Of a stretch of DNA of 64,000 bases, positions 13,642 through 48,387 are shown piece after piece (within the stretch, counting starts at the first letter, position 1; every line of letters starts with the position of its first letter). Under the pieces are notes generated by a model, which was given only the letters and a program-made list of their open reading frames with translations, was not told the DNA's origin and did not search any database. Position numbers and translations under genes: made by a program. This stretch comes from Chloroflexota bacterium (lineage in GTDB: Bacteria; Chloroflexota; Limnocylindria; Limnocylindrales; CSP1-4): the NCBI GenBank assembly GCA_003171255.1, contig PMYK01000023.1, forward strand, positions 113,945 to 177,944. Reading direction: 5' to 3'.

Positions 13642-13714
13642 CCCGCGCTCAGCCATCGCCGCGGGGCAGCCTGCGCGGCGAGCCACGATTACCCGAACCG
13701 CAATTCTGAGGGAA

Positions 13715-15118: not shown

Positions 15119-15912
15119 GCGAAGTGCTCATCCTCAAGCTCGGCGGGACGACCCTCGCCGACCAGGCACACGTCCTCGACGAGGTCGCGGCCGTCGCCCG
15201 TACCCGTCCCGTCGTGCTCGTCCACGGCGGCGGCAAGCGCATCACCGAATGGCTCGAGCGCCTCGGCGTGCCGAGTCGGTTCGAAGGCGGCCTGCGGGTG
15301 ACCGACCAGGCGGCCCTCGACGTGGCCGCGGCCGTGCTGCGTGGAGTGGTCAACTCCGAGCTCGTGTCGGACCTACGCGACCGCGGCGTCGACGCCGTGG
15401 GCCTGAGTGGCGTGGACGGCGGCTTCATGATCGCCGAGCGCGTGCCCGGTCTCGGGCTCGTGGCCCATGTCGTCGGCATACGCCGCGACTTCCTCGACAC
15501 TCTCCTGGTTGCGGGGCAGGTAGCCGTCGTGGCGCCGCTCGCCCGCGACGAGCACGGCATAGTCTGCAACGTCAACGCTGACGACGCCGCCGCGGGCATC
15601 GCCGCCGGACTCGGAGCGCGCCAGCTCGTGCTCATGACCGACGTCGACGGGATCCGCGACGCCGCCGGCGAGAAGCTGGCCACGATGACCGCCGACCAGG
15701 CCGAGCGGCTCATCGCCGACGGAGTAATCAAGGGCGGCATGGTTCCCAAGATCCGGGCCGCCCTCCAGGCGGTCGCCTGGTCCGGCGCCCAGGCCGTGAT
15801 CGCCGACTCGTCCGACCCGCACGCCCTGACCCGCGCCCTCGACGACCCAAGCTTCGGTACTCGCATTACCGCCGCGCGCGAGGCAAGCGAAGCCCCGGCC
15901 GGCACGGCCTGA
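15115..15912 (+). CDS. argB: Acetylglutamate kinase
   Basis: LILKLGGTT ... VLVHGGG amino-acid kinase motifs; GTG start overlaps the argJ stop. Confidence 0.9.
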   Translation: MSEVLILKLGGTTLADQAHVLDEVAAVARTRPVVLVHGGGKRITEWLERLGVPSRFEGGLRVTDQAALDVAAAVLRGVVNSELVSDLRDRGVDAVGLSGVDGGFMIAERVPGLGLVAHVVGIRRDFLDTLLVAGQVAVVAPLARDEHGIVCNVNADDAAAGIAAGLGARQLVLMTDVDGIRDAAGEKLATMTADQAERLIADGVIKGGMVPKIRAALQAVAWSGAQAVIADSSDPHALTRALDDPSFGTRITAAREASEAPAGTA

Positions 15913-15916
15913 TCCG

Positions 15917-16458
15917 ATGGCAGAAATGGTCATCAGCGGAAACGGCGTCAATGTCAAGCAGCGCCGCCAGCGCGCTCTACTCGAGCTCGTCGCCCGCTCA
16001 CCGATCGGCAGCCAGGAGGAGTTGGTGGAGTTGCTCCGCGAGGCCAACTACGAGGTCACGCAGGCCACTGTCAGCCGCGACCTGACCGAGCTGGGTCTGG
16101 TCAAAGTGCCGCGAGGCGACCGCCACGTATATGCCACCCCGGAGAGCGCGGCCACCGGTAACCTGTACGACGCCAGGCTGAACCGTCTCCTCGAGGACAT
16201 TCCGGTTCGCATCGCGCGGAGTGGCCTGAGCCTCGTCCTCCTGGCCACACCGGGCTCCGCGGGCGCGATTGCCCAGGCGATCGACCAATCGAGCTTGCAG
16301 GATCAGGTCGGCACCCTCGCCGGCGACAACACGTTGCTCGTCCTATTCGAGACCGAGGCCGCCCTCGAGCGGTGGCTGGTCCGTTTCCAGAGCTATCAAC
16401 CGGCCGGGGCCGCAACGCTGCCGATCGGCCGCCCTTTCGCGCATTCGGAGGCTCCTCG

Positions 16459-16462
<4 letters not shown>
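15917..16462 (+). CDS. argR: Arginine repressor
   Basis: N-terminal winged-helix QEELVELLREANYEVTQATVSRDLTELGLVK and C-terminal oligomerisation/arginine-binding domain (GDNTLLVL). Confidence 0.85.
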
Positions 16463-17745
<1,283 letters not shown>

Positions 17746-17758
17746 CCCCACGAACCGA

Positions 17759-19144
17759 GTGCCCGCCAAGATGCCCAGTCCAGCTCACCGTGCCGGCGCC
17801 GTCGGGGCCAAGAGCAGACCCGTGGCCCCGGTTGACCCCGTGCCCCCATTCGACGCCGAGCGCAAGCTGCTCGAGCTGTCGTTCCTGCACGAGTTCGCCA
17901 AGCTTCTGACCACGGCCAGAAACTGGGACGAGTTGATGCGGACGATCGTCGACCGCACTACCGACGCCTTGAACGTCGAGGTCTGCTCCGTCTACCTGAT
18001 GGATCGCGACGCGGCGCGGCTGCGACTGTCCGCGACTAACGGCCTCGACCGCGACCAGATCGGGGTCGTCACGCTGGCCGTCGGCGAGGGCCTGACGGGC
18101 AGCGCGGCGCAGATCGGTCAGCCGATCGCCTCGCCCGACGTGCGGGTCGATCCGCGGTTCAAGTGGGTTCCGGGTTTCGACCAGTCGCAGTTCGTGTCGA
18201 TGCTTTCGGTGCCAATGCCCTGGAACGACTCGATCATCGGCGTCATCAACGTCCAGGCCATCGAGTCGCGGACGTTCTCGCCAGAAGAGGTCGAGTTCCT
18301 GGTCACCATTGGGGCGCTGCTCGGCGGCATCGTCGAGAAGGGCCGTCTCCAGGCCGAGGCCGAGGAGCAGCTCGAAACCCTCACAGCCCTCGACGGCGCC
18401 CGGGCCGAGCTGCTGGCCGTGGTCACCCACGAGCTGCGCACGCCGCTGGCGGTCGTCCGCGCCTACCTGGACCTGCTCGCCGATGCCGCGGTCGAAGCCG
18501 CCGGGGGTTCGACACCCAAACCGGAGCTCGTCGAGGAATGGCGGATCCAGGCAATCGCCCAGGTCACGCGGCTGGATCGGCTTGTCGACTCGATCCTCGC
18601 TTCCGTCCGCGGCGACGGTCTTGCCGCCGGTCTAGCCCGCGTTCCGTTCGACCTCGCCCGCGCCGTCAACGACACGATCGGCGAGATGACGCCGCTGCTG
18701 CGCGGCCACCCGCTCCGCCGCACCGGCACCTGGGAAGCGCTGATGGGTATCGGTGACGAAGGCCGCTTCCGCCAGGTTCTCGAGCATCTCCTCGAGAACG
18801 AGGTCAAGTATTCGCCGGAGGGCGGCTCGGTCAGCGTCGGGACGATGCGGTCCGGGGGCGAGATCCAGATCTACGTCACCGACGACGGACCGGGCATTCC
18901 CGAGCCCGAGTGGGAGTCGGTCTTCGAGGCCTACGTACGAACGGCCCATCGTCCGCGGGGCTCCGGAATCGGTCTCTACGCCGCTCGACGGCTCATGAGC
19001 GCGATGGGCGGACGTGTCTGGTTGGAACCAAATGGGTACGGCGGCAGTCGATTCGTGGTGGCCGTGCCCGAGATGCGCCACACTGAAGGCGACACGACCG
19101 GTCCAGAGGCGGGCGTGATGTCCGAGGCGGGCCCGGAAGGGTAG
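17759..19144 (+). CDS. GAF-domain sensor histidine kinase
   Basis: GAF domain (VYLMDRD..GEGLTGSAAQ..), HisKA H-box VTHELRTPL and HATPase_c motifs (DDGPGIP, GSGIGL). Confidence 0.8.
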   Translation: MPAKMPSPAHRAGAVGAKSRPVAPVDPVPPFDAERKLLELSFLHEFAKLLTTARNWDELMRTIVDRTTDALNVEVCSVYLMDRDAARLRLSATNGLDRDQIGVVTLAVGEGLTGSAAQIGQPIASPDVRVDPRFKWVPGFDQSQFVSMLSVPMPWNDSIIGVINVQAIESRTFSPEEVEFLVTIGALLGGIVEKGRLQAEAEEQLETLTALDGARAELLAVVTHELRTPLAVVRAYLDLLADAAVEAAGGSTPKPELVEEWRIQAIAQVTRLDRLVDSILASVRGDGLAAGLARVPFDLARAVNDTIGEMTPLLRGHPLRRTGTWEALMGIGDEGRFRQVLEHLLENEVKYSPEGGSVSVGTMRSGGEIQIYVTDDGPGIPEPEWESVFEAYVRTAHRPRGSGIGLYAARRLMSAMGGRVWLEPNGYGGSRFVVAVPEMRHTEGDTTGPEAGVMSEAGPEG

Positions 19145-19174: not shown

Positions 19175-19885
19175 GTGAGCGGTATCGGTCCCGGGGAGAC
19201 GAGCCTGCTGGTGCTGGTCGTCGATGACGAGCCGGCGATGGTCGGCGCCGTCTCGGCCCTGGTCGGCCGCGCCGGCCACCGCGTCGTCACCGCGTACGAC
19301 GGCAACACCGCCCTGCGCCGCTTCAGCGAGGAGCGTCCGGATCTCGTGCTGCTCGACCTGGCCATGCCGGGGCTCGACGGCGTCGAAGTCTGTCGCGCGA
19401 TCCGCCGCATGTCGCAGACCCCGATCATCGTCCTGACCGGCGAGGCCGACGAGCGAGCCAAGGTCGAAGCGCTCGACACCGGCGCCGACGACTACGTGGT
19501 CAAGCCATTCGGCAAGCAGGAATTGCTCGCCCGCATCCGCGCCGTCATGCGCCGCCGGGGCAACGAAGCCGAGCCACACGGCGTCGGCGAGCTGCGCTGG
19601 GGCCCGATCGTCCTCGACCGCGGCCGCCACACCGCGGCGGTGTCGGACCGCGAGATCATCCTGACCCGCACCGAATACAGCCTGTTGGCGTCGCTGGTCG
19701 CCGCCGCCGGCCACGTGGTCTCGCATTCCACGCTGCTCTCCGCGGGCTGGCCCGGCGAGCCCAACCCCGACCCGCAGTGGCTCAAGCCCCACCTCGCCCG
19801 CCTCCGCTCCAAGCTCCAAGCGGCCGGCGCCCCCGTCCCCGCCTCCGTCCGCGGCGTCGGCTACCGCCTCGAGGGCGGCGAGTAG
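19175..19885 (+). CDS. OmpR-family response regulator (receiver + winged-helix DNA-binding domain)
   Basis: Receiver motifs VLVVDDE ... LVLLDLAMPGLDG ... KPF; C-terminal trans_reg_C domain (RGVGYRL); cognate with the upstream kinase. Confidence 0.8.
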   Translation: MSGIGPGETSLLVLVVDDEPAMVGAVSALVGRAGHRVVTAYDGNTALRRFSEERPDLVLLDLAMPGLDGVEVCRAIRRMSQTPIIVLTGEADERAKVEALDTGADDYVVKPFGKQELLARIRAVMRRRGNEAEPHGVGELRWGPIVLDRGRHTAAVSDREIILTRTEYSLLASLVAAAGHVVSHSTLLSAGWPGEPNPDPQWLKPHLARLRSKLQAAGAPVPASVRGVGYRLEGGE

Positions 19886-19990: not shown

Positions 19991-20230
19991 TGACTGCTAT
20001 CAAGCGGTCGAACGATCGACTTGGCCGAAAACAGGGTGCGGTCGCTGGTCGGACATGCCGCCTGAGCGTGGTCGGGCCGCCGTCGAGGCTTCTGCTAGTG
20101 CTGATCGAGACCAACTCCCGGACCAGAGTTCGATAGCAGTCACGCGGCGCCTGAGCGAGATGTCGGACGCCTTCTGGGTTCAATAGCAGTCGCCTGGCGC
20201 ATGAACGAGAAGTCGCGGCTCGGCGCGCGC
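19991..20230. repeat. Repeat-rich non-coding leader between the response-regulator gene and cydA: three copies of TT(C/G)(G/A)ATAGCAGTC (one inverted) and two degenerate tandem units of about 50 nt
   Basis: TGACTGCTATC at 19991-20001 is the reverse complement of GATAGCAGTCA at 20132-20142; GTTCGATAGCAGTCA at 20128 and GTTCAATAGCAGTCG at 20178, each followed by a GCGC(C/A)TGA(G/A)CGAGA(T/A)GTCG block. Confidence 0.35.
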
Positions 20231-23076: not shown

Positions 23077-24546
23077 TTGGCAGGCCGGGCGGCGATCTCG
23101 TGGGCCCAGGAGTCGGTGGCGCGGCGCTGCTCGGCGGCCGTGAAGTCGAGCCTGCGGATGCGGCTGCTCCGTTCGGCGGCGGCGCTGTCGCCGGTACGGG
23201 CGGGCGCCCCGCCGACCGGCGAGATCGTGGCCCTCGCCACCCACGGCCTCGACGCCCTGGACGCCTACTTCGCGCGATACCTGCCCCAGCTCGTCCTGGC
23301 CGCGATCGTACCGCTCGTCGTGATCGCCTGTCTGGCGGCGGTAGATCTGGTGGCTACTTTGACGGTTGCGCTGACGGTGCCGCTCATTCCGCTGTTCATG
23401 GTGCTCATCGGATCGGCCACGGAACGGCGCCGACGGCGGCGCTGGGCTGCCCTGGCGCGGCTCTCGGGCCACTTCCTCGACATCGTCGCGGGTTTGCCGA
23501 CGCTCCGGGTCTTCGGTCGAGCGGCGGCGCAGCTGGGCCGGTTGGAGAAGGTCACCGACGACTACCGCCGCGAGAGCATGGCCACGCTCCGAGTGGCATT
23601 CCTCTCCGCTTTCGCGCTTGAGCTGGCCGCCACGCTCTCGGTCGCGCTGGTGGCGGTCGGCGTGGCGCTGCGGCTCGTCGACGGGGGGATGGAGCTTCGC
23701 ACCGGCCTGTTCGTTCTGATTCTGGCGCCCGAGGCCTACCTGCCGCTGCGCCAGCTGGGCGCCAGCTTCCACGCCGCCGAGGAGGGGCTGGGGGCGGCCG
23801 ACCGGGTCTTCAGGATCATCGAAGCGGGCGACGTGGCCGCGGGCCCGGCGGGCGACGGCGAGCTCCTACCGGACCTTCGCGGCGCCGAGCTGCGAGTCGA
23901 AGGCGTAACGGTTCGGCAACCGGGGCGGGGCCTGGAGGCGCCGTTCGAGGCTTCGCTCGTCGTCGGTCCGGGCGAGGTGGTGGCGATCTCCGGTCCGAGC
24001 GGCGCCGGCAAGAGCACGCTCGTCGAGGTGCTGCTGGGACTTCGGTCCGCGGACGCCGGTCAGGTGGCGCTCGCCACCGCGGGCGGTGAGCTGGTGCCTC
24101 TCACGACTCTCGATCGGGAGGCCTGGCACCGCCGTGTGGCCTGGGTCCCGCAGCATCCGTTCTGCTTTGCCGGCAGCGTCGCCGAGAATGTCCGGCTGGC
24201 GGCGCCCGACGCTTCGGACGCGGCCGTGGACGAGGTCATGGCGGCGGTCGGCCTGCCCGACCTGGACCGCCAGACGCTCCTGGCTGAGGGGGGCGCCGGC
24301 CTCTCCTCCGGCCAGCGCCGCCGGCTTGGAGTGGCTCGGGCCCTTCTCAAGGGCGGCGATTTCGTGCTCCTCGACGAGCCAACGGCCGGGCTCGACGCCG
24401 CATCCGAGGCCACGGTCCTGGCGGCGATTAGCGCCGCTGCCCACACCCATGGCCGGGCCGTCCTAGTGGTGACCCATCGCCGGGCCGCCCTCGAGATCGC
24501 CGATCGCGTGGTGTCGATCGAGTCTCGTTCGGGAGCGCTCGAATGA
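23077..24546 (+). CDS. cydD: Thiol reductant ABC exporter subunit CydD (permease/ATPase); annotated from the first canonical in-frame start, but homology extends upstream to about 22861
   Basis: Exporter TM domain plus Walker A GPSGAGKST, LSSGQRRRLGVAR and LLDEPTAGLD; about 70 conserved N-terminal residues (RLLRYARATAVALAAAIALG...) lie upstream of TTG 23077 in the same frame with no ATG/GTG/TTG back to the cydB TGA. Confidence 0.7.
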   Translation: MAGRAAISWAQESVARRCSAAVKSSLRMRLLRSAAALSPVRAGAPPTGEIVALATHGLDALDAYFARYLPQLVLAAIVPLVVIACLAAVDLVATLTVALTVPLIPLFMVLIGSATERRRRRRWAALARLSGHFLDIVAGLPTLRVFGRAAAQLGRLEKVTDDYRRESMATLRVAFLSAFALELAATLSVALVAVGVALRLVDGGMELRTGLFVLILAPEAYLPLRQLGASFHAAEEGLGAADRVFRIIEAGDVAAGPAGDGELLPDLRGAELRVEGVTVRQPGRGLEAPFEASLVVGPGEVVAISGPSGAGKSTLVEVLLGLRSADAGQVALATAGGELVPLTTLDREAWHRRVAWVPQHPFCFAGSVAENVRLAAPDASDAAVDEVMAAVGLPDLDRQTLLAEGGAGLSSGQRRRLGVARALLKGGDFVLLDEPTAGLDAASEATVLAAISAAAHTHGRAVLVVTHRRAALEIADRVVSIESRSGALE

Positions 24547-26219
24547 GCGGCCCTATCGCCCTGTGGCGCATCGCCTCGATCGGCCGGCCGGTAACTGGCC
24601 GGATGCTGCTGGCCGTGGCCGCGGGCGTGGCCGCGGCCGGCGCCGCGATCGGGCTGACCGCCACTTCGGCCTGGCTCATCTCGCGGGCTGCCGAGCGGCC
24701 GCCGGTTCTGTACCTCATGGTCGCTGTGACTGGGGTCCGGGCCTTTGGCGTGAGCCGCGGCGCCCTTCGCTACGCCGAGCGACTGGCCAGCCACGACGCC
24801 GCCTTCCGCGTCCTGTCGCGGCTCCGCAGCCGAGCCTACGCCCGACTCGAGGTCCTCGCCCCGGCTGGCCTGGCCGAGTTCCGTTCGGGCGATCTGCTGT
24901 CTCGACTCGTCGACGACGTGGACGGCCTGGCCGACCTGTGGCTGCGAGTGCTGCTCCCCTATCTCATCGCCGGCATTGCCGCCGGCGTCGCCGTGGCGGC
25001 TATCTGGCTGCTGGTTCCGGCCGCAGCGGCCGCCCTCGGCGCCTCGGTGCTTTTCGTGGCTTTCGTCGTTCCGGTGTTCACCGTGACCGTGGCGCGTCGG
25101 GGCGAGCGGCGTATCTCCGGCGCCCGCGGCGAACTGGCCGCGGCCACGCTCGACGTCCTCGAGGGAGCGCCCGAGATGCTCGTTGCCGGAGCCACGGAAG
25201 CGCGCCTGGTCGAGCTTGCCTCGATCGACGAGTCGCTCGCGGTGGCCGAGTCACGGACCGCGGCGGGTGCCGGGCTCGGGGCCCTGCTCTCCGGACTCGC
25301 GAGCGGCGCCGCCGTCTGGCTCGGACTCGTTGCCGGCATCGCCGCCCTCCGTGCCGGAGCCATCGAGGGCGTGGCTCTGGCCGTGGTCGCTCTCACACCG
25401 ATCGCCGTGCACGAGGCCGTGGCCGGGCTCGTGCCCGCATCTCAGCACCTGCCGGGTCTGGCGGCGATGGCCGGACGGCTGCTCGACGTGATCTCGCGGC
25501 CGGATCCGGTGCGCGAACCGGATCAGGAAGAGGCAGAGTCGCTGCCGCAGGGGCCGTACGGGCTCCGCTGCCGGGGTCTGCGGGCTCGTTACGTCGCCAC
25601 AGGCCCCGACGCCCTGATCCTGCCGGGCGTCGATCTACAGCCCGGTGGGCGGCTGCTGGTGACCGGCCCGAGTGGTTCGGGCAAGAGCACCTTCGCGGCC
25701 GTGCTGGTCCGGTTCCTCGAGCCGTCGGCCGGTTCGGTCGAGCTTGTGGGCCCCGATCGGTCGGTCGACATCCGCCGGCTCGCGGGCGACGACGTGCGGC
25801 GCGTGATCTGTCTGTGCGCCCAGGACCCGCACATCTTCGACACGTCGGTCGCCGAGAACGTCCGCCTGGCCAGGCCCGGGGCGACGGACGACGAGGTGAG
25901 CGCCGCCCTGTCCGCCGCTCAGCTGGCGCCGTGGATCGGCTCGCTGCCGGACGGGCTGGCGACACTCGTCGGCGAGCATGGGGCGCGCCTATCGGGCGGG
26001 CAGCGGCAGCGCCTTTCGCTGGCCCGGGCGCTCCTGGCCGACGCCCCGATCATCGTCTTCGACGAGCCAACCGAGCATCTCGACGACGCGACCGCCTCGG
26101 CCCTGACGGCCGACCTTCTGACCGCCACTGCCGGCCGGACGATCGTGATGATCACCCACCGCCCCGAGCTGATCGACTCGGCGACGTGGGCGGCACGGAT
26201 CGACCTGGGGTCGGCTTGA
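24543..26219 (+). CDS. cydC: Thiol reductant ABC exporter subunit CydC
   Basis: ATGA overlap with the cydD stop; exporter TM domain; Walker [23 protein letters not shown] and Walker B IIVFDEPTEHLD. Confidence 0.8.
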   Translation: MSGPIALWRIASIGRPVTGRMLLAVAAGVAAAGAAIGLTATSAWLISRAAERPPVLYLMVAVTGVRAFGVSRGALRYAERLASHDAAFRVLSRLRSRAYARLEVLAPAGLAEFRSGDLLSRLVDDVDGLADLWLRVLLPYLIAGIAAGVAVAAIWLLVPAAAAALGASVLFVAFVVPVFTVTVARRGERRISGARGELAAATLDVLEGAPEMLVAGATEARLVELASIDESLAVAESRTAAGAGLGALLSGLASGAAVWLGLVAGIAALRAGAIEGVALAVVALTPIAVHEAVAGLVPASQHLPGLAAMAGRLLDVISRPDPVREPDQEEAESLPQGPYGLRCRGLRARYVATGPDALILPGVDLQPGGRLLVTGPSGSGKSTFAAVLVRFLEPSAGSVELVGPDRSVDIRRLAGDDVRRVICLCAQDPHIFDTSVAENVRLARPGATDDEVSAALSAAQLAPWIGSLPDGLATLVGEHGARLSGGQRQRLSLARALLADAPIIVFDEPTEHLDDATASALTADLLTATAGRTIVMITHRPELIDSATWAARIDLGSA

Positions 26220-26280
26220 AGCGAGGATCACGACGGACGAATCGGGGTGGCGGACCGCCCGTAGTCCACGAACTCCCCCG

Positions 26281-26320
26281 ACAAACAACAACCCGCGCTA
26301 CCTGCCGAAAGGTGCGCGGG
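26281..26320 (-). terminator. Candidate intrinsic terminator for the minus-strand small-ORF transcript
   Basis: 7-bp GC stem CCCGCGC/GCGCGGG (26292-26320) followed on the minus strand by UUGUUGUUUGU; about 85 nt downstream of the small ORF's stop. Confidence 0.4.
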
Positions 26321-26406
26321 TCGATGTTGGAGAGGGAGGAGCTAGTGTGAGGAGCGGGTTGGCCTAAGCCTCTGAGTCAGAAGTGACCGCAAACTGCCAG
26401 GTCGTT

Positions 26407-26490
26407 CTACTCGGCCGCGTGGGCGCGAGACGGGGCGACGAACCAGCCAACCACCAGAACTCCGAAACTGATGAATGCTGCTGCGATCAT
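26407..26490 (-). CDS. Small ORF encoding a 27-aa hydrophobic single-TM peptide (MIAAAFISFGVLVVGWFVAPSRAHAAE)
   Basis: ATG at 26490 with GAAGGAG 7 nt upstream; TAG stop at 26407-26409; sits 78 nt downstream of a copy of the conserved amt promoter module and has its own downstream hairpin/U-tract; below the 60-aa cut-off of the ORF track. Confidence 0.4.
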   Translation of the reverse strand: MIAAAFISFGVLVVGWFVAPSRAHAAE

Positions 26491-26567
26491 TTCTTGGCTC
26501 CTTCGGCTGAACCACTGGGATTTGCATCCCGTTCAATATCTGGAAGTCTATAGAACGAGTCGGCGCA

Positions 26568-26632
26568 AATCAGTAGCGCGCCGGTGGACCATCGGTAGCG
26601 CTGGGGTAGCGTCAGGGTTGCCGTTCGGTACG
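26568..26632 (-). promoter_or_regulatory. Copy 1 of a conserved upstream module: AATCAGTA plus four GGTNNC hexamers at 11-bp spacing (GlnR-box-like a-b-a-b operator)
   Basis: GGTGGA 26583, GGTAGC 26594, GGTAGC 26605, GGTTGC 26616; module ends 78 nt upstream of the small ORF's ATG. Confidence 0.45.
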
Positions 26633-26682
26633 AAACGGCCGTCCCGGACCGGCGGGCGACCCGCGCGGCCGGCGGCACGCCG

Positions 26683-27906
26683 CTACGACTGGTAGACGAC
26701 CGTCTCGCCGTGTTGCGAGGCGTCCAGGCCGGCCTCTTCCTCGGACTCCTCCACACGGAGCCCGACGAACGCGCCCACCACCTTGAGAATGATCAGCGTC
26801 GCCAGCGCGCTGTAGATCCAGACTGCGGCGATGGCCACGAGCTGCGTCCCAACCTGGCCGACATTGCCGTCGATCAGGCCCTTGGCCCCGCCAATGGTCG
26901 CAACCGCGAGAACGCCTGTCAGGAAGACTCCCAACGTTCCGCCCACGCCGTGGACCGCCCAGACGTCGAGCGCGTCGTCGATCTCGAGGCGCTGGCGCAG
27001 CAGGATCGCGCCGTAGCAGACCACTCCGGCGATGAAGCCGATGACGATGGCCGAACTCGGATCGACGAACCCGGAGGCTGGCGTGATCCCGACCTCTCCG
27101 GCAATGGCGCCCGACACCGCACCGATGACCGACGGCGAACCTTTGTGCAGCCAGCTCATGGTCAGCCATGTCAGTGCGCCCATTCCGGCGGCGGTGTTGG
27201 TGACCAGGACGGCGTTGACCGCGTGGCCGTCGGCGGCCAGGGCCGAGCCGCCGTTGAAGCCGAACCAGCCGAACCACAGGATGCCCGCCCCGATGACTGT
27301 CAGGCGTACGTCGTGGGGCTCGAAACGATCCGACTCGCGGCGAACCCGCGGACCGAGCACGAGGGCGGCCACCAGGGCGGCAACGCCGGAGCTGATGTGG
27401 ACGACGGTGCCGCCGGCGTAGTCGAGGACGCCCATGTTCTTGAGCCAGCCGCCATCACCCCAGACCCAGTGGCAGATCGGCGAGTAGACGAGCAGGCTCC
27501 ACAGCAGGGCGAACAGCACGAAGGCTTTGAAGCGCTTGCGCTCGGCGAAGGCGCCGATGATCAGGGCGGGCGTGATGATCGCGAACATCATCTGGAAGAG
27601 CGCGAAGGCCGCGGACGGGATCGTCTTGGCGTAGGGGCCCGGGTCCGAACCGATCCCCTTGAGGCCGATGTTGTCCAGGTTGCCGATGATGCCCCAGCCG
27701 TTGAAGTCCTTGCCGAAGGCCAGGGTGTAGCCGACCAGGACCCACGTCACGCTGACCAGGGCCAGGATGAACATGCACTGCATGAGGATGCTGAGCACGT
27801 TCTTGCGGCGGACGAGGCCACCGTAGAAGAGGGCCAGGCCGGGCGTCATCAACATGACGAGCGCCGTGGCGGTCAGTATCCAGGCGGTGTCGCCACCATT
27901 GATCAC
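26683..27906 (-). CDS. amt: Ammonium transporter (Amt/MEP family)
   Basis: Amt family throughout (DTAWILTATALVMLMTPGLALFYGGLVRRKN, GAFAERKRF, HGVGGTLG); GTG 27906 has GAAGGAG 8 nt upstream and gives an N-terminus colinear with the paralog; the ORF-track TTG at 27936 is probably an over-extension. Confidence 0.85.
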   Translation of the reverse strand: MINGGDTAWILTATALVMLMTPGLALFYGGLVRRKNVLSILMQCMFILALVSVTWVLVGYTLAFGKDFNGWGIIGNLDNIGLKGIGSDPGPYAKTIPSAAFALFQMMFAIITPALIIGAFAERKRFKAFVLFALLWSLLVYSPICHWVWGDGGWLKNMGVLDYAGGTVVHISSGVAALVAALVLGPRVRRESDRFEPHDVRLTVIGAGILWFGWFGFNGGSALAADGHAVNAVLVTNTAAGMGALTWLTMSWLHKGSPSVIGAVSGAIAGEVGITPASGFVDPSSAIVIGFIAGVVCYGAILLRQRLEIDDALDVWAVHGVGGTLGVFLTGVLAVATIGGAKGLIDGNVGQVGTQLVAIAAVWIYSALATLIILKVVGAFVGLRVEESEEEAGLDASQHGETVVYQS

Positions 27907-27990
27907 GCTCGGGACTCCTTCGCTTCCAACTCGCAACGAAACCCGGTCTTAGGTTTCGGTTTGGCGAAGCGTACGGAGCCACGCGGCGCG

Positions 27991-28055
27991 AATCAGTAAC
28001 GACCGGGTAGCCGTCCGGTAGCGCCTGGGTGGCGGGAGGGTTGCCCTTCGGGACG
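27991..28055 (-). promoter_or_regulatory. Copy 2 of the conserved module (AATCAGTA plus four GGTNNC hexamers at 11-bp phase) upstream of amt
   Basis: GGTAGC 28006, GGTAGC 28017, GGTGGC 28028, GGTTGC 28039; 85 nt upstream of the amt GTG; a perfect 7-bp hairpin CGAAACC/GGTTTCG lies between module and SD. Confidence 0.45.
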
Positions 28056-28175
28056 CGTTCTCACGGCCGGTTCGTGTGTTCCGGCTGGGGAGTTCGCCGG
28101 GGCCGGTCGAGGGGGAGACCGGCCCCGGGTGGGGATTGGCGAGTCGGCGGCGGGTGTCCAGGCGCGCCTATTCGA

Positions 28176-29414
28176 TCAGCTCTGCCAGGCCACCTCGCCA
28201 TGCTGTGAGGAGTCGAGGCCGGCCTCCTCTTCGGATTCCTCTACCCGGAGCCCGACGAAGCGGTCGACGATCTTGAGGATGATGAAGGTGGCGACGCCGC
28301 TGTAGATCCACGTGGCGCCGACGGCGACCAGCTGCTTGAGGACCTGGCTGCCGTTGCCTTCGACCAGCCCGGACGCGCCGTTGATCGCGGCAATCGCGAA
28401 TACGCCGGTCAGAATCGCGCCGAGCGTGCCGCCCACGCCGTGGACGGCCCAGACGTCGAGCGCGTCATCGATCTTGAGCCGCTCGCGCAGCAGGATCGCG
28501 CCGTAGCAGGTCACGCCTGCCGCGAAGCCGATGATGATGGCCGAGCTGGCATCCACGTAGCCGGAGGCGGGCGTGATGGCGACGAGACCGGCCACGCCGC
28601 CCGAAATGGCGCCCACCACACTAGGCGTGCCCTTGTGCAGCCAGCTCACGGTTACCCAGGTCAGGGCGGCCATGCCGGCTGCCGTGTTCGTGACGACGAT
28701 GGCGTTGGCGGCCAGGCCGTTGGCGCCGAGAGCCGATCCGCCGTTGAATCCGAACCAGCCGAACCACAGCAATCCTGCACCGATGACGGCCAGCCGGACG
28801 TCGTGCGGCTCGAACCGCTCGGACTCGCGGCGCACTCGCGGACCCAGGACGAGCGCGGCGACCAGTGCCGCCACGCCCGAGCTGATGTGGACGACGGTGC
28901 CGCCTGCGAAGTCGATGGCGCCCAGCTTGTTTAGCCAGCCGCCCTGGCCCCAGACCCAATGTGCGATCGGCGAGTAGACCAGCAGCGTCCACAACAAGGT
29001 GAAGATGACGAAGGCCTTGAACTTCTTGCGCTCGGCGAAGGCGCCGGTGATGAGGGCCGGGGTGATGATTGCGAACATCATCTGGAAGGCCATGTAGGCG
29101 CTGGCCGGGATCGTCGGCGCGTACGAGATCGGGTCCTTACCGATGCCGTGAAGGCCTATGAAGTCCAGCCCGCCGATGATGCCCCAGCCGTTGACGTCGG
29201 GACCGAAGGCCAGCGTAAACCCGAACAGGACCCACGTGACGCTCACCAGGGCCAGGATGAAGATGCTCTGCATGATCGTGCTGAGGACGTTCTTGCGGCG
29301 AACCAGACCGCCGTAGAAGAGAGCGAGGCCGGGCGTCATGAGCATGACGAGGGCGATCGACATCAGCACCCAGGCTGTGTCGCCGGTATCGATCGGGTGT
29401 CCCGTCAGAATCAC
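28176..29414 (-). CDS. amt: Ammonium transporter (Amt/MEP family), tandem paralog
   Basis: GTG start with GAGGAGAG 6 nt upstream; about 75% identical to the downstream amt copy. Confidence 0.85.
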   Translation of the reverse strand: MILTGHPIDTGDTAWVLMSIALVMLMTPGLALFYGGLVRRKNVLSTIMQSIFILALVSVTWVLFGFTLAFGPDVNGWGIIGGLDFIGLHGIGKDPISYAPTIPASAYMAFQMMFAIITPALITGAFAERKKFKAFVIFTLLWTLLVYSPIAHWVWGQGGWLNKLGAIDFAGGTVVHISSGVAALVAALVLGPRVRRESERFEPHDVRLAVIGAGLLWFGWFGFNGGSALGANGLAANAIVVTNTAAGMAALTWVTVSWLHKGTPSVVGAISGGVAGLVAITPASGYVDASSAIIIGFAAGVTCYGAILLRERLKIDDALDVWAVHGVGGTLGAILTGVFAIAAINGASGLVEGNGSQVLKQLVAVGATWIYSGVATFIILKIVDRFVGLRVEESEEEAGLDSSQHGEVAWQS

Positions 29415-29491
29415 TTGCCGCTCTCCTCATGCATGCCGGACGGCGATGAGCCGCCTCGCCCGAACGGAAGGGTACGGATGCGGTTCGGCGG

Positions 29492-29556
29492 AATCAGTAG
29501 CCGCCGGGTGACCCCAGGGTCACAGTCTGGTGGCGCCGGGGTTGCCGTTCAGGACG
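29492..29556 (-). promoter_or_regulatory. Copy 3 of the conserved module upstream of the second amt
   Basis: AATCAGTA 29492; GGTGAC 29507, GGTCAC 29518, GGTGGC 29529, GGTTGC 29540 (11-bp phase); 78 nt upstream of the amt GTG. Confidence 0.45.
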
Positions 29557-29865
29557 GGGTTCGGGCGAGAGTCGCGCTGCGCAACGTGGCTGGTACCAGT
29601 CGGCTACGCACCTAGCTTGCCGACGCCTCCAGCGGCGTGATCCGATGCGGCAGGTCGATGCAGGCGACACGGCAGCCGCGGGCATCGTGGCCGGGCAGGC
29701 CCCAGAAATGGCGCCAGGCTGCGTCTGGGCCGTGCATGCCACCGTCCGCGAGCGACTCACGAGCCGGCAGCCGCAGGCAGCGCAGGTGAGCACGAACGAA
29801 CCCTCGCGGTGCATGGCGCGCGGCGATTCCGACTCCCCCACCGGCTCGAACTCGTGCAGCTTCAT
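29494..29865 (-). CDS. Possible small Cys-rich hypothetical protein (MKLHEFEPVGESESPRAMHREGSFVLTCAACGCRL...); 3' extent uncertain
   Basis: ATG 29865 with GGAGA 5 nt upstream; third-position GC about 85% for the first 75 codons, dropping afterwards where the frame runs through the amt operator module; no family recognised. Confidence 0.25.
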   Translation of the reverse strand: MKLHEFEPVGESESPRAMHREGSFVLTCAACGCRLVSRSRTVACTAQTQPGAISGACPATMPAAAVSPASTCRIGSRRWRRRQARCVADWYQPRCAARLSPEPRPERQPRRHQTVTLGSPGGY

Positions 29866-30007
29866 CGGGTCTCCGTCCGGCGCAATCGGGCGACTGTTCG
29901 ACGATGCGACTCGGCGGGCCCGGCGTCGAGGCCGCCCGGGTGCCGATTGGGTGGCAGATCGGGACGAGGTCCGCCGGCCTTCCGCACGACCATCCGCCCA
30001 GCTCGCG

Positions 30008-31423
30008 TTACTGCCCGAGCCGCGCTTTCGCGGCGGCAAGGGCGGTGGCCACGCGGCGCGGAGCCGTGCCCCCGGTCACGTCGCAGCCGGCCATGGCACC
30101 TTCCAGCCCGGCGGCCGCACGCAGCTCGCCGGGGACGGCGACATCGCCCACGAGTGCGATCGCGATCGAGTCGTCGGACGTGGCCAGGGCCGCGGCGATC
30201 GTGGCGTCGTCCAGCGCATCGAGCCCGACGCCGGCTCGCTCCGCTTCGGCGACGAGCGCACCAACGACGTGATGAGCGGCCCGGAATGCCACTCCCCGCC
30301 GGACGAGGGCATCGGCCACGGCGGTGGCAGTCGTGTAGCCCTCGCCGGCCGCCGCGCGCATCCGATCGCGGTCTACGGTCAGCGTGGCCACCACTCCGGC
30401 CATGACCAGCAGCGATGCCTCGAGCGTGGCCGCCGCATCGAAGAGCGGCGGCTTGTCGTCCTGCATGTCCTTCTGATACGCCAGCGGCAGGCCCTTGAGC
30501 AGCACCAGCATCGCGGTCAGGTCGCCGATGACCCGGGCGGTCTTGCCCCGCACCAGCTCGGCCGGATCGGGGTTCTTCTTATTGGGCATCATCGACGAGC
30601 CGGTCGAGAACGAGTCGGCCAGGCGCACGAACCCGAAGCGCGGGTTCGACCACCAGGTGATCTCCTCGGCCAGCCGCGACAGATGAACCATGCTCAGGGC
30701 GAACGCGGCCAGCGCCTCAACGACGAAGTCCCGGTCGCTGACACCGTCGAGCGAGTTGGCCGTCACGGCGTCGAAGCCAAGCTCCGTGGCAGTTCCTTCG
30801 CGGTCGAGCGGATAGCCCGCACCCGCCAGCGCGCCCGAGCCGAGCGGGCAGACGTTCGCCCGCCGCCGGCAGTCCGCCAGCCGTCCCCTGTCGCGTTCGA
30901 GCATCTCGACATATGCCAGCAGGTGGTGGGCGAACAACACCGGCTGGGCCGGCTGGATGTGGGTCATGCCCGGCAGGATCGCCTCGCCCTCGCGGTCGGC
31001 CAGTCCGACGAGCGCTCGCTCCATCTCGACGACCGCCGCGTCGAGACCGTCGATCGTCCGGCGCAGCCAGAGCCTGAGGTCGGTGGCGACCTGGTCGTTG
31101 CGCGACCGGCCCGTGTGGAGCCGCCCGGCGACCGGCCCGATCCGCTCGCGCAGCGCGACCTCGAGGTTCATGTGGATGTCCTCGAGCGCCGGATCCCAGG
31201 TCAGCTTGCCGGCCTCGACTTCGGCCCGCAGGCCCTCGAGCCCGGCGACCAGCGTCTCGACCTCGTCGGGATCAAGGAGGCCGGCACGACCGAGTCCGTG
31301 GACATGGGCGATGGAACCGGCGATGTCGTCGACGGCCAGAACGTCATCGAAATCGATCGAACGCGTGAACTCGGCCATGCGCTCGTCCGATGTGCCCTCG
31401 AATCGACCACCCCACATCCGCAT
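30008..31423 (-). CDS. argH: Argininosuccinate lyase
   Basis: ATG 31423 with AGGAGGAG 5 nt upstream; fumarate-lyase signature GSSMMPNKKNPD and ArgH conserved blocks; the long upstream extension in the ORF track (to 32524) is a frame artifact overlapping the MFS gene. Confidence 0.9.
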   Translation of the reverse strand: MRMWGGRFEGTSDERMAEFTRSIDFDDVLAVDDIAGSIAHVHGLGRAGLLDPDEVETLVAGLEGLRAEVEAGKLTWDPALEDIHMNLEVALRERIGPVAGRLHTGRSRNDQVATDLRLWLRRTIDGLDAAVVEMERALVGLADREGEAILPGMTHIQPAQPVLFAHHLLAYVEMLERDRGRLADCRRRANVCPLGSGALAGAGYPLDREGTATELGFDAVTANSLDGVSDRDFVVEALAAFALSMVHLSRLAEEITWWSNPRFGFVRLADSFSTGSSMMPNKKNPDPAELVRGKTARVIGDLTAMLVLLKGLPLAYQKDMQDDKPPLFDAAATLEASLLVMAGVVATLTVDRDRMRAAAGEGYTTATAVADALVRRGVAFRAAHHVVGALVAEAERAGVGLDALDDATIAAALATSDDSIAIALVGDVAVPGELRAAAGLEGAMAGCDVTGGTAPRRVATALAAAKARLGQ

Positions 31424-31530
31424 CGCTGCTCCTCCTGTGGGGCTCATGGTACCGGCGCCGGAGCGCCCGCGCGACGACGCGGCGCGGCGGCTGGCAACGC
31501 GGCCGCGGCGTTCGACCGAGGCAGCTCTGG

Positions 31531-32805
31531 CTAGGTGCCGACCACCGTCAGCGGCTCCATTGCGACCGGTTCGACCGCGGCGCGCGAGACTCGCGTATGG
31601 GCCGGCAGCGCCAGCACGGAGATCACGCCGCCCACGGCCGTCGCTCCGGCCAGGAACCAGAACACCACCTCCGTGCCGCCGAGCTTGTAGATGAAGGCGC
31701 CGGCCAGGTTCGACAGGACGGCGGCCGCCCCGAAAGCCACCGATTGGTACAGAGTCTGACCCGTCGAAACCAGCCTCTGCGGCAGGATGGTGGCCATCGT
31801 GATCACGAATGAGACCGTGACCCCGGCGAAGAAGAGGCCGGCCACCATCTTCGTGGCCGTGATCACCAGCGGCTCCGTCACGAGGGCCCAGGTGCCGAAC
31901 ACCATTGCCAGGCCCAGGGCCGAGACACCGAGGACGGGTCTGATCCCGTAGCGGACGGCGAGCCAGCTGGCCAGGATCATCCCGGGCACCTCGGCCGATG
32001 CGCCGAGACCGTTGGCGAACCCGATCGTCGAAGGGCCGCCCCCGAGCGCCTGCAGCCGCAACGTGATGAAGGTGCCGCCGCCCATGATGCCGATGAAGAT
32101 CCCCAGGCAGCCGATCAGTATGGCGATCAGCCGCGGCCGGCCGTTCAGCGCGTCGGAGACGGACCCGAAGCGGCCGTGGCCGGTGGCGGTCGCTGGACCG
32201 CTCGGCCTGGGGTTGGCCTGAGCTGGCTTCCCGGTGCCGGCAACGGTCACGGCCTTCTCGGCCGGCGTGCGTCCGCCGTGGCCCTGCGGGATCCGCACGG
32301 CGATGAAGGCGATCGCGATCGTTGTCAGCGCCCCGGCGACTGGGGCCACCACATAGCCCGTATGGTCGTAGAGGACGCCCGATACGATCGCGAACACCCC
32401 GCCGCCCAGGCTGCCGAGCATCCTTAGCCGGCCGTATTCGCGCTGCGGGTCGGCCAGTCCGGAGACTGCCTGGGCATCGGTCAGAGCGCTGATCGCGCCG
32501 CCGGTCGCAGACCCGGCCACGCATAGCAGCAGGATCGGCAGGACGGGCAGCGGCAGGGCCAGGCCAAGCACGAGCACGGCCGCAGGTATGGCTGCCAGCT
32601 GGAGCGCTCGACGCGTTCCGACTACGGCGTCGCCGAGATGGCCCCAGACCGGCAGGGCGAGCCAGAATGCGAGCGACCCCAGGCTCCCGCAGATCGCCAC
32701 CAGCGGGGCGTCGAAGCCGTGCCAGGTCAGGATCACCGGCACGAACGCGTAGAAGGTGCCGTAAACAGCACCGTTGGCGAGGTAGAGAATCCGGAGCCAG
32801 CGCAT
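31531..32805 (-). CDS. MFS transporter
   Basis: 12 predicted TM segments with a central cytoplasmic loop, MFS-like; no further subfamily assignment. Confidence 0.75.
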   Translation of the reverse strand: MRWLRILYLANGAVYGTFYAFVPVILTWHGFDAPLVAICGSLGSLAFWLALPVWGHLGDAVVGTRRALQLAAIPAAVLVLGLALPLPVLPILLLCVAGSATGGAISALTDAQAVSGLADPQREYGRLRMLGSLGGGVFAIVSGVLYDHTGYVVAPVAGALTTIAIAFIAVRIPQGHGGRTPAEKAVTVAGTGKPAQANPRPSGPATATGHGRFGSVSDALNGRPRLIAILIGCLGIFIGIMGGGTFITLRLQALGGGPSTIGFANGLGASAEVPGMILASWLAVRYGIRPVLGVSALGLAMVFGTWALVTEPLVITATKMVAGLFFAGVTVSFVITMATILPQRLVSTGQTLYQSVAFGAAAVLSNLAGAFIYKLGGTEVVFWFLAGATAVGGVISVLALPAHTRVSRAAVEPVAMEPLTVVGT

Positions 32806-40871: not shown

Positions 40872-43037
40872 GTGACCGCAATCATCCGCAGGACAGCCGC
40901 CAGGCCCGCGCCCCCCAAGGGCGAGGCTGGTTCGGCGTTCCCGTACATCAACCGTGAGCTGAGCTCCCTGGAGTTCAACCACCGTGTCCTGTACGAGGCC
41001 GGCGATGAGCGGAATCCGTTGCTGGAGCGGATCAAGTTTCTGGCCATCTTCGCCAGCAACATGGATGAGTTCTTTCAGATCCGCGTATCCGGACTGATGG
41101 AGCAGGCGGAAGCCCACGCCGTTTCGGCCACACCGGGCGAGAAGCCCGCCGCCGAGCAGCTGGCTGATATCCGGACGCGATTCCGCTCGCTGCTCGATGA
41201 GCAGCGCGAGGTCTTCGAGCGAGTCTGCCGGGAGCTTGCGACGGCCGGCATCGACATCGTCGACTACGCCGACGTGCCCGACTACCACGCGGAGCTGCGG
41301 CAGCGCTTCATCGACGAGATCTATCCCGTGCTGACGCCCCTGGCCGTGGATCCCGGCCATCCATTCCCCTATATCAGCACGTTGAGCCTCTCCATCGCAA
41401 TCCGCATGGAAGATCCCGATGAGCGGGAGGAGCGGTTCGCTCGCGTCAAGGTGCCGCCGGTTCTGCCACGTTTCCTCCAGGTCGGGCAGAGCAAGTTCGT
41501 CCTCCTCGAACAGGTCATCGCCGCCAACCTGGACATGCTCTTCTCGGGCATGACCATCCTCGAGACTCACCTGTTCCGCGTCACCCGCGATGCGGATCTG
41601 GAGCTCCAGGAGGACGAGGCTGACGACCTCATGCTGGCCCTCGAGGAGGAGCTTCGCCGACGGCGCTTCGGCGACGCAGTTCGACTCGAGGTCGACAAGG
41701 TCATGCCCGCTTCGATGCGCAGGGTCCTCGAGAAGGGCGTGGGCGTCGACCCCGCAGACTGCTACGAGATCCCCGGCATGCTCGACCACACCGGCCTCTG
41801 GCAGATCGCCGGGCTGGACCGGCCCGATCTCAAGCTGCCCCCCTACTCGCCTGTCGTGCCGTCCCGCCTGGTGCAGCTCGACGAGGACGAGCCGGCCGAT
41901 GTCTTCGCCGCGATCCGCAACGGCGACATCCTCGTCCACCATCCATACGAGAGCTTCGCGGCCTCGACGCAGCGCTTCATCACCCAGGCGGCTACGGATC
42001 CCGAAGTCCTGTCGATCAAGATGACCCTGTATCGCACGAGCGGCGACTCGCCGATCATCCGGGACCTGATTTCCGCAGCGGAACGAGGCAAGCAGGTCGT
42101 GGTCCTGGTGGAGATCAAGGCCCGTTTCGACGAAGAGGCGAACATCGTCTGGGCTCGCAAGCTCGAGCAGGCCGGCGCTCATGTCGTTTACGGACTGGTC
42201 GGCCTGAAGACGCACTCCAAGACATCGCTCGTGGTTCGCCGCGAAGGGTCGACCCTCAGGCGCTACGTCCACATCGGAACGGGGAACTACAACTCCGGCA
42301 CGGCCCGGCTGTACACGGACTTCGGGCTGCTGTCCTGTCGTCCCGAGCTCGGCGCCGACGTCAGCGACCTCTTCAACGTGCTGACCGGCCTGTCCCGGCA
42401 GCGCGACTTCAGGCGCCTCATCGTGGCCCCGATGAACCTTCGCAGCTGGATCCTCGAGATGATCCAACGCGAGACCGACCACGCCCGAGCCGGCCGGCCG
42501 GCTCGCATCATCCTGAAGTTGAACTCCCTCGTGGACCCTGCCTGCGTCGCCGGGTTGTACGAGGCGTGGCAAGCGGGAGTCCGGGTCGACCTCATCATCC
42601 GCGGCATCTGCTCCTTGTGGCCCGGCATCCCTGAGATCAGCGAGGGCATCCGCGTTCGGTCGATCGTCGGCCAGTACCTCGAGCACTCTCGGGTCTTCTC
42701 GTTCCTCAACGGCGGCGAGCCGGAGCTGTTCATCGGTTCGGCCGACCTCATGGAGCGGAACCTCGATCGCCGCGTCGAGGCGCTCGTACCCATTGAGGAC
42801 CCGGAGGCCAGGGCTCGGATCGACGCCGTGCTCGACGTGATGCTGGCAGACGACCGGCGGTCCTGGCAGCTGGGCGCCGATGGCAAGTACCACCGAACCG
42901 AAGATCTGACCGGCGCACGGGGTACCATCGACACGTTCGAGACGCTCAAGGGGCAAGCCGTCGAGATGGCGACGGCTGCGGTCGTGGCACCCCACCGACC
43001 GCATGCCGGCATGGGCTCGCTCGATCCGAGGGCATAG
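40872..43037 (+). CDS. ppk: Polyphosphate kinase 1
   Basis: PPK1 N-terminal FINRELSSLEFNHRVL, two PLD-like HxK domains, full length of about 720 aa. Confidence 0.9.
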   Translation: MTAIIRRTAARPAPPKGEAGSAFPYINRELSSLEFNHRVLYEAGDERNPLLERIKFLAIFASNMDEFFQIRVSGLMEQAEAHAVSATPGEKPAAEQLADIRTRFRSLLDEQREVFERVCRELATAGIDIVDYADVPDYHAELRQRFIDEIYPVLTPLAVDPGHPFPYISTLSLSIAIRMEDPDEREERFARVKVPPVLPRFLQVGQSKFVLLEQVIAANLDMLFSGMTILETHLFRVTRDADLELQEDEADDLMLALEEELRRRRFGDAVRLEVDKVMPASMRRVLEKGVGVDPADCYEIPGMLDHTGLWQIAGLDRPDLKLPPYSPVVPSRLVQLDEDEPADVFAAIRNGDILVHHPYESFAASTQRFITQAATDPEVLSIKMTLYRTSGDSPIIRDLISAAERGKQVVVLVEIKARFDEEANIVWARKLEQAGAHVVYGLVGLKTHSKTSLVVRREGSTLRRYVHIGTGNYNSGTARLYTDFGLLSCRPELGADVSDLFNVLTGLSRQRDFRRLIVAPMNLRSWILEMIQRETDHARAGRPARIILKLNSLVDPACVAGLYEAWQAGVRVDLIIRGICSLWPGIPEISEGIRVRSIVGQYLEHSRVFSFLNGGEPELFIGSADLMERNLDRRVEALVPIEDPEARARIDAVLDVMLADDRRSWQLGADGKYHRTEDLTGARGTIDTFETLKGQAVEMATAAVVAPHRPHAGMGSLDPRA

Positions 43038-43061
43038 CGCTCCAGGCAGCGGGGTTGGTCG

Positions 43062-44864: not shown

Positions 44865-44931
44865 ACTTCGGGCCATGCCAATCAGCCGCTTCCAGCGCCG
44901 CTCCGGCTGCCGTGACAAGCGCCCCTAGCCA

Positions 44932-45662: not shown

Positions 45663-45711
45663 CTCGCGGTTGTTTCAGGCGAGAGGCGCGGGTCGGTGGC
45701 ATGATCCGTGC

Positions 45712-46212: not shown

Positions 46213-46327
46213 CAGCCGACTGTTAGACGGCGCACCCGTTTGTATACTTGCTGTGCCAATTTGAACGGGCGATTCGCACCTGGCCATTCGGGTGACTTGA
46301 AATAAGCCGAAGCGGGAGGACCGCGAG

Positions 46328-46891: not shown

Positions 46892-46938
46892 ACCGTCGTC
46901 GCGGCAGACGGTCCGCCCAGACCGGGACCAGCGGCCGA

Positions 46939-48216: not shown

Positions 48217-48387
48217 GTGTCGAGCATGGCACAGCTCAGGACGCTCGGCACGCAGACCGGGTCGATATGGCAGTGTGGACCGCCGACCGCTACCCTAACG
48301 GGTGTTGGTGTCTTGAGGTTCCGCGGCTGAGCCCCGACAGAGCCGGGCCGTCAGACCGATCGCTGCTTCTCTCGGAGGTTTGGCCAG

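Follow-up and report, generated by a model that had tools for sequence, protein, structure and literature searches.

The DNA described here, a stretch of 64,000 nucleotides (nt) from a Chloroflexota bacterium of the Limnocylindria (GenBank assembly GCA_003171255.1, metagenome contig PMYK01000023.1, positions 113,945 to 177,944 of the forward strand; hereafter the window), encodes two ammonium transporters and an unannotated small open reading frame (ORF) on its minus strand. Each of these three genes is preceded by a copy of the same module of evenly spaced repeats and promoter-like hexamers, which is the subject of this analysis. The genes, and the hairpins that follow two of them, are as follows (aa, amino acids; bp, base pairs):

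28176–29414, minus strand: amt1, ammonium transporter of 412 aa with a GTG start (Pfam PF00909, 1e-131; TIGR00836 above cut-off)
28097–28128, minus strand: hairpin with 12 G+C bp, located between the amt1 stop codon and module 2 (fold; intergenic segment z = -3.5)
26683–27906, minus strand: amt2, ammonium transporter paralog of 407 aa with a GTG start (Pfam PF00909; TIGR00836 above cut-off)
26407–26490, minus strand: small ORF of 27 aa (MIAAAFISFGVLVVGWFVAPSRAHAAE), unannotated, with a strong Shine–Dalgarno sequence, GAAGGAG
26281–26322, minus strand: terminator-like hairpin with a 13-bp G+C stem followed by UUGUUGUUUGU, closing the small-ORF unit (fold and sequence)

The element TACTGATT (AATCAGTA on the plus strand) occurs three times in the 64 kb, on the minus strand only, against a shuffle expectation of 0.16. 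An AC(C/T) trinucleotide recurs at exact 11-bp spacing 5' of every copy, and the pattern (ACY-N8)x4-ACY gave four matches in the window where none was expected, all of them within the three module sites. The TAC inside TACTGATT constitutes a fifth unit in phase with the array, and 11 bp upstream of GGCAACC there is a sixth, CGT(A/C)C. A hexamer of the form TA(C/G)NCT, which resembles a −10 element of the TANNNT type, was found exactly 17 nt downstream of TACTGATT in three places, again with none expected. The unit array, TACTGATT, the 17-nt spacer and the −10-like hexamer therefore give each module a span of 88 bp. The three modules, seen in the pattern matches in the window and conserved in an 82-sequence alignment, are:

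29469–29556, minus strand: module 1, before amt1; six units at 11-bp phase (CGTCCT, GGCAACC, GCCACC, GTGACC, GTCACC, GCTACT), −35-like TACTGATT at 29492–29499, 17-nt spacer, −10-like TACCCT at 29469–29474
27968–28055, minus strand: module 2, before amt2; units CGTCCC, GGCAACC, GCCACC, GCTACC, GCTACC, GTTACT, −35-like TACTGATT at 27991–27998, −10-like TACGCT at 27968–27973
26545–26632, minus strand: module 3, before the small ORF; units CGTACC, GGCAACC, GCTACC, GCTACC, TCCACC, GCTACT, −35-like TACTGATT at 26568–26575, −10-like TAGACT at 26545–26550

The three-copy module is real, and far beyond chance. A sequence-only reading of the window had described three near-identical modules in front of minus-strand units, 78–85 nt from the start codons and without further copies in the window, and these statements are borne out: the distances from TACTGATT to the start codon are 78, 85 and 78 nt, and the pattern searches matched the three sites only. 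The third copy does precede a small ORF of 27 codons rather than a transporter gene, as had been stated. The search pattern proposed in that reading found two matches in the window against none expected; the third copy escapes it because its proximal hexamer is GGTGGA, although the text of the reading had already allowed (C/A) at the position concerned. Two features of the original description had to be revised. The 11-bp phase stands, but the number of units is five to six rather than four, and AATCAGTA is not a separate element; it is the predicted −35 region, joined to the final unit.

Hairpins lie 3' of amt1, amt2 and the small ORF and suggest three independent transcription units, with one copy of the switch to each. 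The hairpin at 28097–28128 probably ends the amt1 transcript. A simple terminator scan missed these hairpins, whose loop or tail falls outside the scan rules. The leaders of the small ORF and amt2 (26491–26544 and 27907–27967, minus strand) also contain conserved hairpins near the predicted 5' ends. That of the small ORF (GGGA-loop-UCCC) shows one covarying pair, that of amt2 has the form CGAAACC-loop-GGUUUCG, and both are downstream of the −10 and outside the module.

To describe the distribution of the module, a set of 185,579 species, each represented by one genome, was scanned with the pattern ACC-N8-ACC-N8-ACC-N8-ACC-N7-TACTGATT. The scan returned 45 stretches, three of which were unrelated (a Saccharibacteria match and two tandem-repeat arrays); the remaining stretches came from 35 metagenome-assembled genomes (MAGs) labelled Chloroflexi or Chloroflexota, Candidatus Limnocylindria or Limnocylindrales, uncultured Chloroflexia or Anaerolineaceae. 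They held 52 true copies, of which 25 precede amt and 27 the small ORF, and an nhmmer profile search of the same loci added 33 more diverged copies, all in front of an amt paralog or the small ORF. A relaxed pattern, consisting of the cores of units 2–5, ACTGA, N19 and TANNCT, gave 145 matches in 100 contigs of the JGI metagenomes, all but one of which (144/145) lie before amt or the small ORF. A match before a cysA-like ABC ATPase gene (L137) lacks the distal signature and is probably due to chance. When a model of the distal half alone was run over approximately 1.1 Mb of loci, 260 of its 274 matches again belonged to amt or the small ORF, and the remainder comprised amt genes whose N-termini vary, gltB (L147) and a gene for a Cys-rich small protein (L055 and L148), which appears to be an occasional target there. 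The total is approximately 230 module copies in the 35 MAGs and 100 metagenome contigs, essentially all of them before an amt paralog or the small ORF.

In two sister lineages (L147 and L152), gltB has a full variant of the module upstream, CGTCCTCAACGGAAACC..CGCCACC..CCGCACC..CACTGAAG-N17-TACGGT, and the gltB homologs of L150 and L151, which belong to lineages more distant from the main clade, showed no clear module. The association with nitrogen genes anticipated from the window alone is thus seen throughout, with amt everywhere and gltB in the sister lineages. The broad regulon that had been expected, including glnA, ureABC and nirBD, did not emerge; the pattern scans of species genomes and JGI metagenomes matched only amt and the small ORF.

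Alignment of 82–85 copies gave the consensus CGT(c/a)C-n2-AAC-n-GCAACC-n4-CGnnACC-n4-CGnnACC-n8-AC(C)-n5-G-n-(T)ACTGAtt-N17-TAnnCT. Conservation is strong in units 1–3 and 5; unit 4 retains only the AC(C) core with weak flanks, and the spacers are free. Variants of TACTGATT (CACTGATT, TACTGAAT, TACTGATC, TGCTGATT and AACTGACT) keep CTGA, as expected of a −35 element resembling TTGACA. In TAnnCT, the T, the A and the final T are invariant and positions 3 and 4 vary, a pattern characteristic of −10 hexamers, and the spacer that separates it from TACTGATT is 17 nt in essentially all copies. Invariant AC(C) and CG positions at 11-bp phase, separated by free spacers, are the pattern predicted for protein contacts combined with promoter hexamers. 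One sub-clade (L032:2436–2479, L006:2391–2433, L004:3755–3844 and L125:4799–4837) differs in its amtB2-type promoter, which retains units 0–3 and a −10 of TAAGCT. Units 4 and 5 and the −35 of these promoters are replaced by an inverted copy (GGTAGCGC) of unit 3 (GCGCTACC), 15 nt away.

Direct AC(C) repeats in five to six units at exact 11-bp phase, the signature of OmpR/PhoB-type sites, were found in the three window copies and in the 82 aligned copies. At the Escherichia coli ompF and ompC promoters, OmpR occupies three contiguous dimer sites (F1–F3 and C1–C3) between approximately −100 and −40. The module resembles this arrangement in having six half-sites in tandem, head to tail and roughly one helical turn from each other, and in its overall span, and also in the placement of the better-conserved sites distally and the weakest beside a poor −35. 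It differs from the OmpR sites in its period (11 bp rather than 10), its G+C-rich unit gCGCnACC, its Chloroflexota host and the fusion of its last unit to an invariant ACTGA −35 core; its binder is, moreover, a predicted one. The sequence-only reading had seen in the repeats the two-box architecture of OmpR-family sites, of which the direct repeats at one helical turn hold and the a/b alternation does not. The pho boxes bound by PhoB are 11-bp direct repeats that replace the −35. The module shares with them the 11-bp period, the promoter-proximal repeat at the −35 position and a presumed dependence on an activator, but it has a different unit sequence, more units and a signal that is likely to be nitrogen rather than phosphate.

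Actinobacterial GlnR boxes, of the form gTnAc-n6-GaAAc, are found at amtB, glnA and other promoters, with several boxes per promoter (PMC10704036), and have the core AC-n9-AC (PMC3662644). Like these, the module has 11-bp-phased cores of 5–6 nt containing AC, several to a promoter and upstream of ammonium transporter genes, and its candidate binder is predicted to belong to the OmpR family. Unlike GlnR boxes, its units read gCG(C/T)nACC throughout, with no a/b alternation and no GaAAc b-site, the phylum is a different one, and the regulon seen here has few targets (amt, the small ORF, gltB and the Cys-rich protein). The proposed GlnR-box resemblance is partial: the AC-n9-AC core, the phase and the amt target agree, whereas the b-site, the orphan status of the regulator and the phylum do not. 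The Mycobacterium tuberculosis RegX3 site is a direct repeat, GGTGCcaactGGTGA (bioRxiv 10.1101/400960), whose GGTG(A/C) core, read as (T/G)CACC on the opposite strand, corresponds to the units described here. RegX3 sites differ in their 10-bp period, in having three described repeats and in their phosphate-gene targets. The module is a lineage-specific addition to a well-known class of promoter architecture.

At lower coordinates than the amt cluster, on the plus strand, the window encodes a two-component system:

17759–19144, plus strand: candidate sensor, a soluble histidine kinase with a PtsP/EI-Ntr-type GAF domain, HisKA (H-box VTHELRTPL) and HATPase_c
19175–19885, plus strand: candidate regulator, an OmpR/PhoB-family response regulator (PF00072 and PF00486), hereafter RR1

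The kinase gene starts 14 nt past the argG stop codon, and no transmembrane segment was found in its product. Its GAF domain most resembles the one at the N terminus of PtsP/EI-Ntr (NF008283, region 5–168, 6e-29; PDB 3trc/3ci6, 2e-18), and the EI-Ntr (PtsP) GAF domain binds glutamine (PMC4848567). This GAF type is the one most similar to that of the window kinase, but here it is fused to HisKA and HATPase domains rather than to a phosphoenolpyruvate (PEP)-dependent phosphotransferase, and its ligand is predicted. The kinase is also unlike EnvZ, a membrane protein, and SenX3, a membrane PAS kinase, in being soluble with a GAF sensor. RR1 has a canonical receiver (DD...D...T...K), complete with the acidic pocket, the Asp that accepts the phosphate, the Thr and the Lys. 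Among solved structures RegX3 (PDB 2oqr, 4.7e-45) is the nearest to it, the other best PDB matches being PrrA and MtrA. No NCBIfam equivalog cut-off was reached by RR1 (best, MtrA with 188 bits vs 300), and GlnR was absent from the 60 PDB chains listed for it.

The two genes lie approximately 6.5 kb from the small ORF in the window, and the linkage is conserved. Every locus that reaches far enough has the order argG–kinase–RR1–(with or without cydABDC)–small ORF–amt(–amt)–Cys-rich ORF–argH, with regulators that are 83–95% identical, and in 12 loci the regulator gene is directly beside the small ORF. In lineages in which the regulator is 61–73% identical, the pair is again found at argG, with gltB and amt nearby in L147 and gltB directly adjacent in L150. 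Three different gene orders place RR1 orthologs next to amt or gltB. On this comparative evidence, RR1 is most likely the regulator of the modules.

Other known regulators were considered and set aside. An orphan GlnR with an atypical pocket does not match the linked regulator, which has a canonical receiver and an adjacent, cognate kinase and is closest to RegX3, with MtrA (below cut-off) as the top NCBIfam match. An ortholog of SenX3–RegX3 or of the Pho system was rejected in view of the missing equivalog assignment, a separate Pho cluster in the window, and targets consisting of amt and gltB. That phosphate cluster (40872–55912) contains ppk, a gene for a CHAD/CYTH protein, a PAS histidine kinase gene (46939–48216), DUF47, pstS, a pst permease component, phoU and pit, together with a second OmpR-family regulator gene (55214–55912). 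GTTAAC...GTTAAG repeats upstream of pstS (approximately 49150–49200) differ from the units of the amt module, which makes the Pho regulator an unlikely binder of the module. The window thus holds a separate Pho system with different repeats at pstS, and the amt-linked regulator is therefore not the Pho regulator.

Taken together, we consider it probable, with a good deal of room left for doubt, that the modules are activator-dependent promoters of the sigma-70 type, likely driven by RR1 and its adjacent soluble kinase under nitrogen limitation. The −10 would be TAnnCT, and the poor −35, cTGAtt, would merge into the final member of a head-to-tail series of five to six half-sites (consensus gCG(C/T)nACC) placed 11 bp apart. 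Counted from the predicted −10, the array would extend from approximately −33 to −97. We propose that winged-helix dimers of the OmpR/PhoB type first fill the well-conserved distal units 0–3. From there they would spread cooperatively across the weak unit 4 and reach unit 5, at the −35, where the bound regulator would recruit RNA polymerase. OmpR at ompF/ompC and PhoB at the pho boxes follow the same logic, and the multi-box GlnR promoters of actinomycetes agree with it (PMC10704036; PMC3662644). The kinase may phosphorylate RR1 in response to glutamine/2-oxoglutarate status as read by its PtsP-like GAF domain. Nitrogen limitation would induce both amt genes jointly with the 27-aa membrane peptide and, in the sister lineages, also gltB and the Cys-rich small protein.

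Several points weigh against this interpretation. A simple sigma-70 scan calls no promoter at the modules, the −35 matching only three of six positions; such a weak consensus promoter fits activator dependence, and a fixed 17-nt spacer between cTGAtt and TAnnCT is seen at the arrays that the scan passes over. There were no glnA, ure or nir targets in the strict and relaxed scans, which used patterns and not a whole-genome weight matrix. The kinase–regulator pair always follows argG, and its closeness to amt could in part reflect a conserved position at the arginine locus rather than a regulatory link. An atypical OmpR-family paralog that is 40% identical to RR1 (RR2; L147:17264–17977 and L149:10800–11516) has a pseudo-receiver without acidic pocket, Thr or Lys, and no PDB relative at 1e-20; its gene neighbours gltB/amt in L147 and RR1 in L149, and a counterpart could be encoded elsewhere in the present genome. 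Finally, in the amtB2 type a CGCTTCC just past the −10 is complementary to a GGAAGCG next to the Shine–Dalgarno sequence, which would matter if transcription started further upstream. Some of these points lend themselves to a rival in which the architecture is the same but is bound by a different winged-helix protein encoded elsewhere (an orphan GlnR-like regulator, an atypical OmpR-family protein of the RR2 type, or a SARP-type regulator), while the kinase and RR1 act in a different process, for example arginine metabolism or the control of cyd. We think this unlikely, but not lightly dismissed: the AC-n9-AC and G(T/C)nAC cores do resemble published GlnR boxes, and both the positions of RR2, with its lost acidic pocket, and the invariable placement of the pair directly downstream of argG would be accommodated. 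RR2 was, however, absent from all main-clade loci with a full module, whereas RR1 is present in every locus extending far enough and its orthologs keep company with amt or gltB in three gene orders; the GaAAc b-site alternation is also missing. RR2 remains the main rival binder. It is less probable still that the repeats are a repressor operator, with binding over −33 to −97 and the −35 blocking RNA polymerase when nitrogen is plentiful. A poor −35 (cTGAtt, 3/6) that escapes a consensus scan is typical of promoters requiring an activator, and the array reaches some 60 bp upstream of the −35, as in the activator arrays of OmpR (F1–F3) and the pho boxes. The overlap of the array with the −35 region would nevertheless suit a repressor, and members of the OmpR family can repress or activate, GlnR doing both (PMC3662644).

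The remaining alternatives concern the nature of the module itself. Its location inside a structured 5' leader RNA (a riboswitch, an attenuator or a protein-binding RNA) transcribed from a promoter further upstream is very improbable and already largely refuted. RNAalifold found no consensus pair in 82 sequences, and with the ribosum score the alignment gave -10.7 kcal/mol and a positive covariation penalty, where column shuffles gave -5.8 ± 2.5. A search of Rfam with positions 24000–32000 at E ≤ 5 returned no family, only a chance snoRNA match inside amt2; mutual information was dominated by paralog type and not by Watson–Crick pairs. The conserved positions are direct repeats at the helical period of DNA, and module 3 starts approximately 50 nt past the amt2 stop codon, immediately after a hairpin. 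Against this stand a weak dyad around TACTGATT, with 52–92% pairing per position in one register and some G-C/C-G swaps, and, in the transcript of the amtB2 type, the complementarity of CGCUUCC to GGAAGCG, which is extended to 9 bp in one variant (L015:3910). A hairpin with TACTGATT in its loop was rejected, having too many mismatches and no RNAalifold support. Anti-Shine–Dalgarno pairing between the −10 region and the Shine–Dalgarno flank exceeded shuffles in the amtB2 type only (-11.8 vs -8.3 ± 2.6) and is missing in the small-ORF and amtB1 types, and the 9-bp complement is a post-hoc single case. The earlier interpretation of the module as a promoter or operator acting at the DNA level rather than as RNA is in agreement with these results. 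That the copies are functionless relics of a tandem amt duplication that included the upstream region has next to no likelihood and is already refuted by the conservation pattern: amt1 and amt2 are indeed tandem paralogs, but the small ORF is unrelated to amt and has the module, as does gltB in other lineages, and the spacers have diverged fully while specific positions are invariant over 35 MAGs and more than 200 copies. The core idea of the sequence-only reading, an operator of an OmpR-type nitrogen regulator at amt promoters, was largely right.

The small ORF that shares the module with the transporters was found in 91 occurrences as 59 peptide variants of 26–32 aa, nearly all of 26–29 aa. 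Nine residues are invariant (A5, F6, F9, L12, V13, W16, A19, P20 and S21). Synonymous codon differences amount to 36% in frame vs 10–13% in the other frames, and the entropy peaks at the third codon position. There was no match to Pfam or NCBIfam, and an exact look-up did not find the peptide in a collection of 15 billion proteins. Conservation, the missing family match and this absence therefore point to an unannotated conserved micro-protein, which is predicted to be membrane-embedded and probably crosses the membrane once. Bacteria usually pair amtB with an adjacent glnK. A tblastn search of the window and of approximately 150 loci (L001–L149) with an approximate E. coli GlnK sequence turned up no PII/GlnK-like gene. 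The amt clusters here have no adjacent glnK/PII gene, and the 27-aa ORF sits in the downstream position.

On the other side of the amt genes, between argH and module 1, lies the gene for the Cys-rich small protein, which is frameshifted in the window:

29612–29865, minus strand: Cys-rich small protein gene, frameshifted

The gene is intact in approximately 20 other loci, so that the frameshift represents either a pseudogene or an assembly error. Elsewhere, the protein has 85–93 aa (MKLHEFEP...CAACGCRL...DARGCRVAC, with the spacing CxxCxC ... CxxxC) and is annotated as 'hypothetical protein'. The arginine genes of the window are split, with argC-like, argJ, argB, argR and argG on the plus strand (12415–17745) and argH on the minus strand (30008–31534). 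The nitrogen genes and cydABDC are thus inserted between argG and argH, and what this insert contains differs among lineages (gltB, an amino-acid permease and adenosine deaminase). In the 500-bp gap between the response regulator gene and cydA, ATAGCAGTC occurs three times, once inverted (19992–20191; 0.13 expected). These repeats are probably the operator of the cydABDC operon and unrelated to the amt module.

Nitrogen control in the Chloroflexota is essentially uncharted, and our literature search found no paper on nitrogen regulation in Limnocylindria or Chloroflexi. Limnocylindria, an uncultured class of the Chloroflexota, are abundant in metagenomes from peat, fen, soil and freshwater. 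It is possible, although we put the idea forward only tentatively, that these bacteria control ammonium uptake without PII/GlnK at the amt locus: the GAF kinase would sense glutamine and/or 2-oxoglutarate directly and drive a small regulon through a dedicated OmpR-family regulator, and the 27-aa micro-protein would be a new accessory or regulatory subunit of Amt. This peptide, overlooked by all gene callers, is co-located with Amt, where other bacteria carry glnK, and would be tightly co-regulated with it. By-products of the analysis are a GAF kinase as candidate nitrogen sensor and a small protein that is new. With an operator, a candidate sensor–regulator pair and a short list of targets (the amt paralogs, gltB and two unannotated small proteins), the nitrogen response of the Limnocylindria becomes testable in metatranscriptomes and in vitro.

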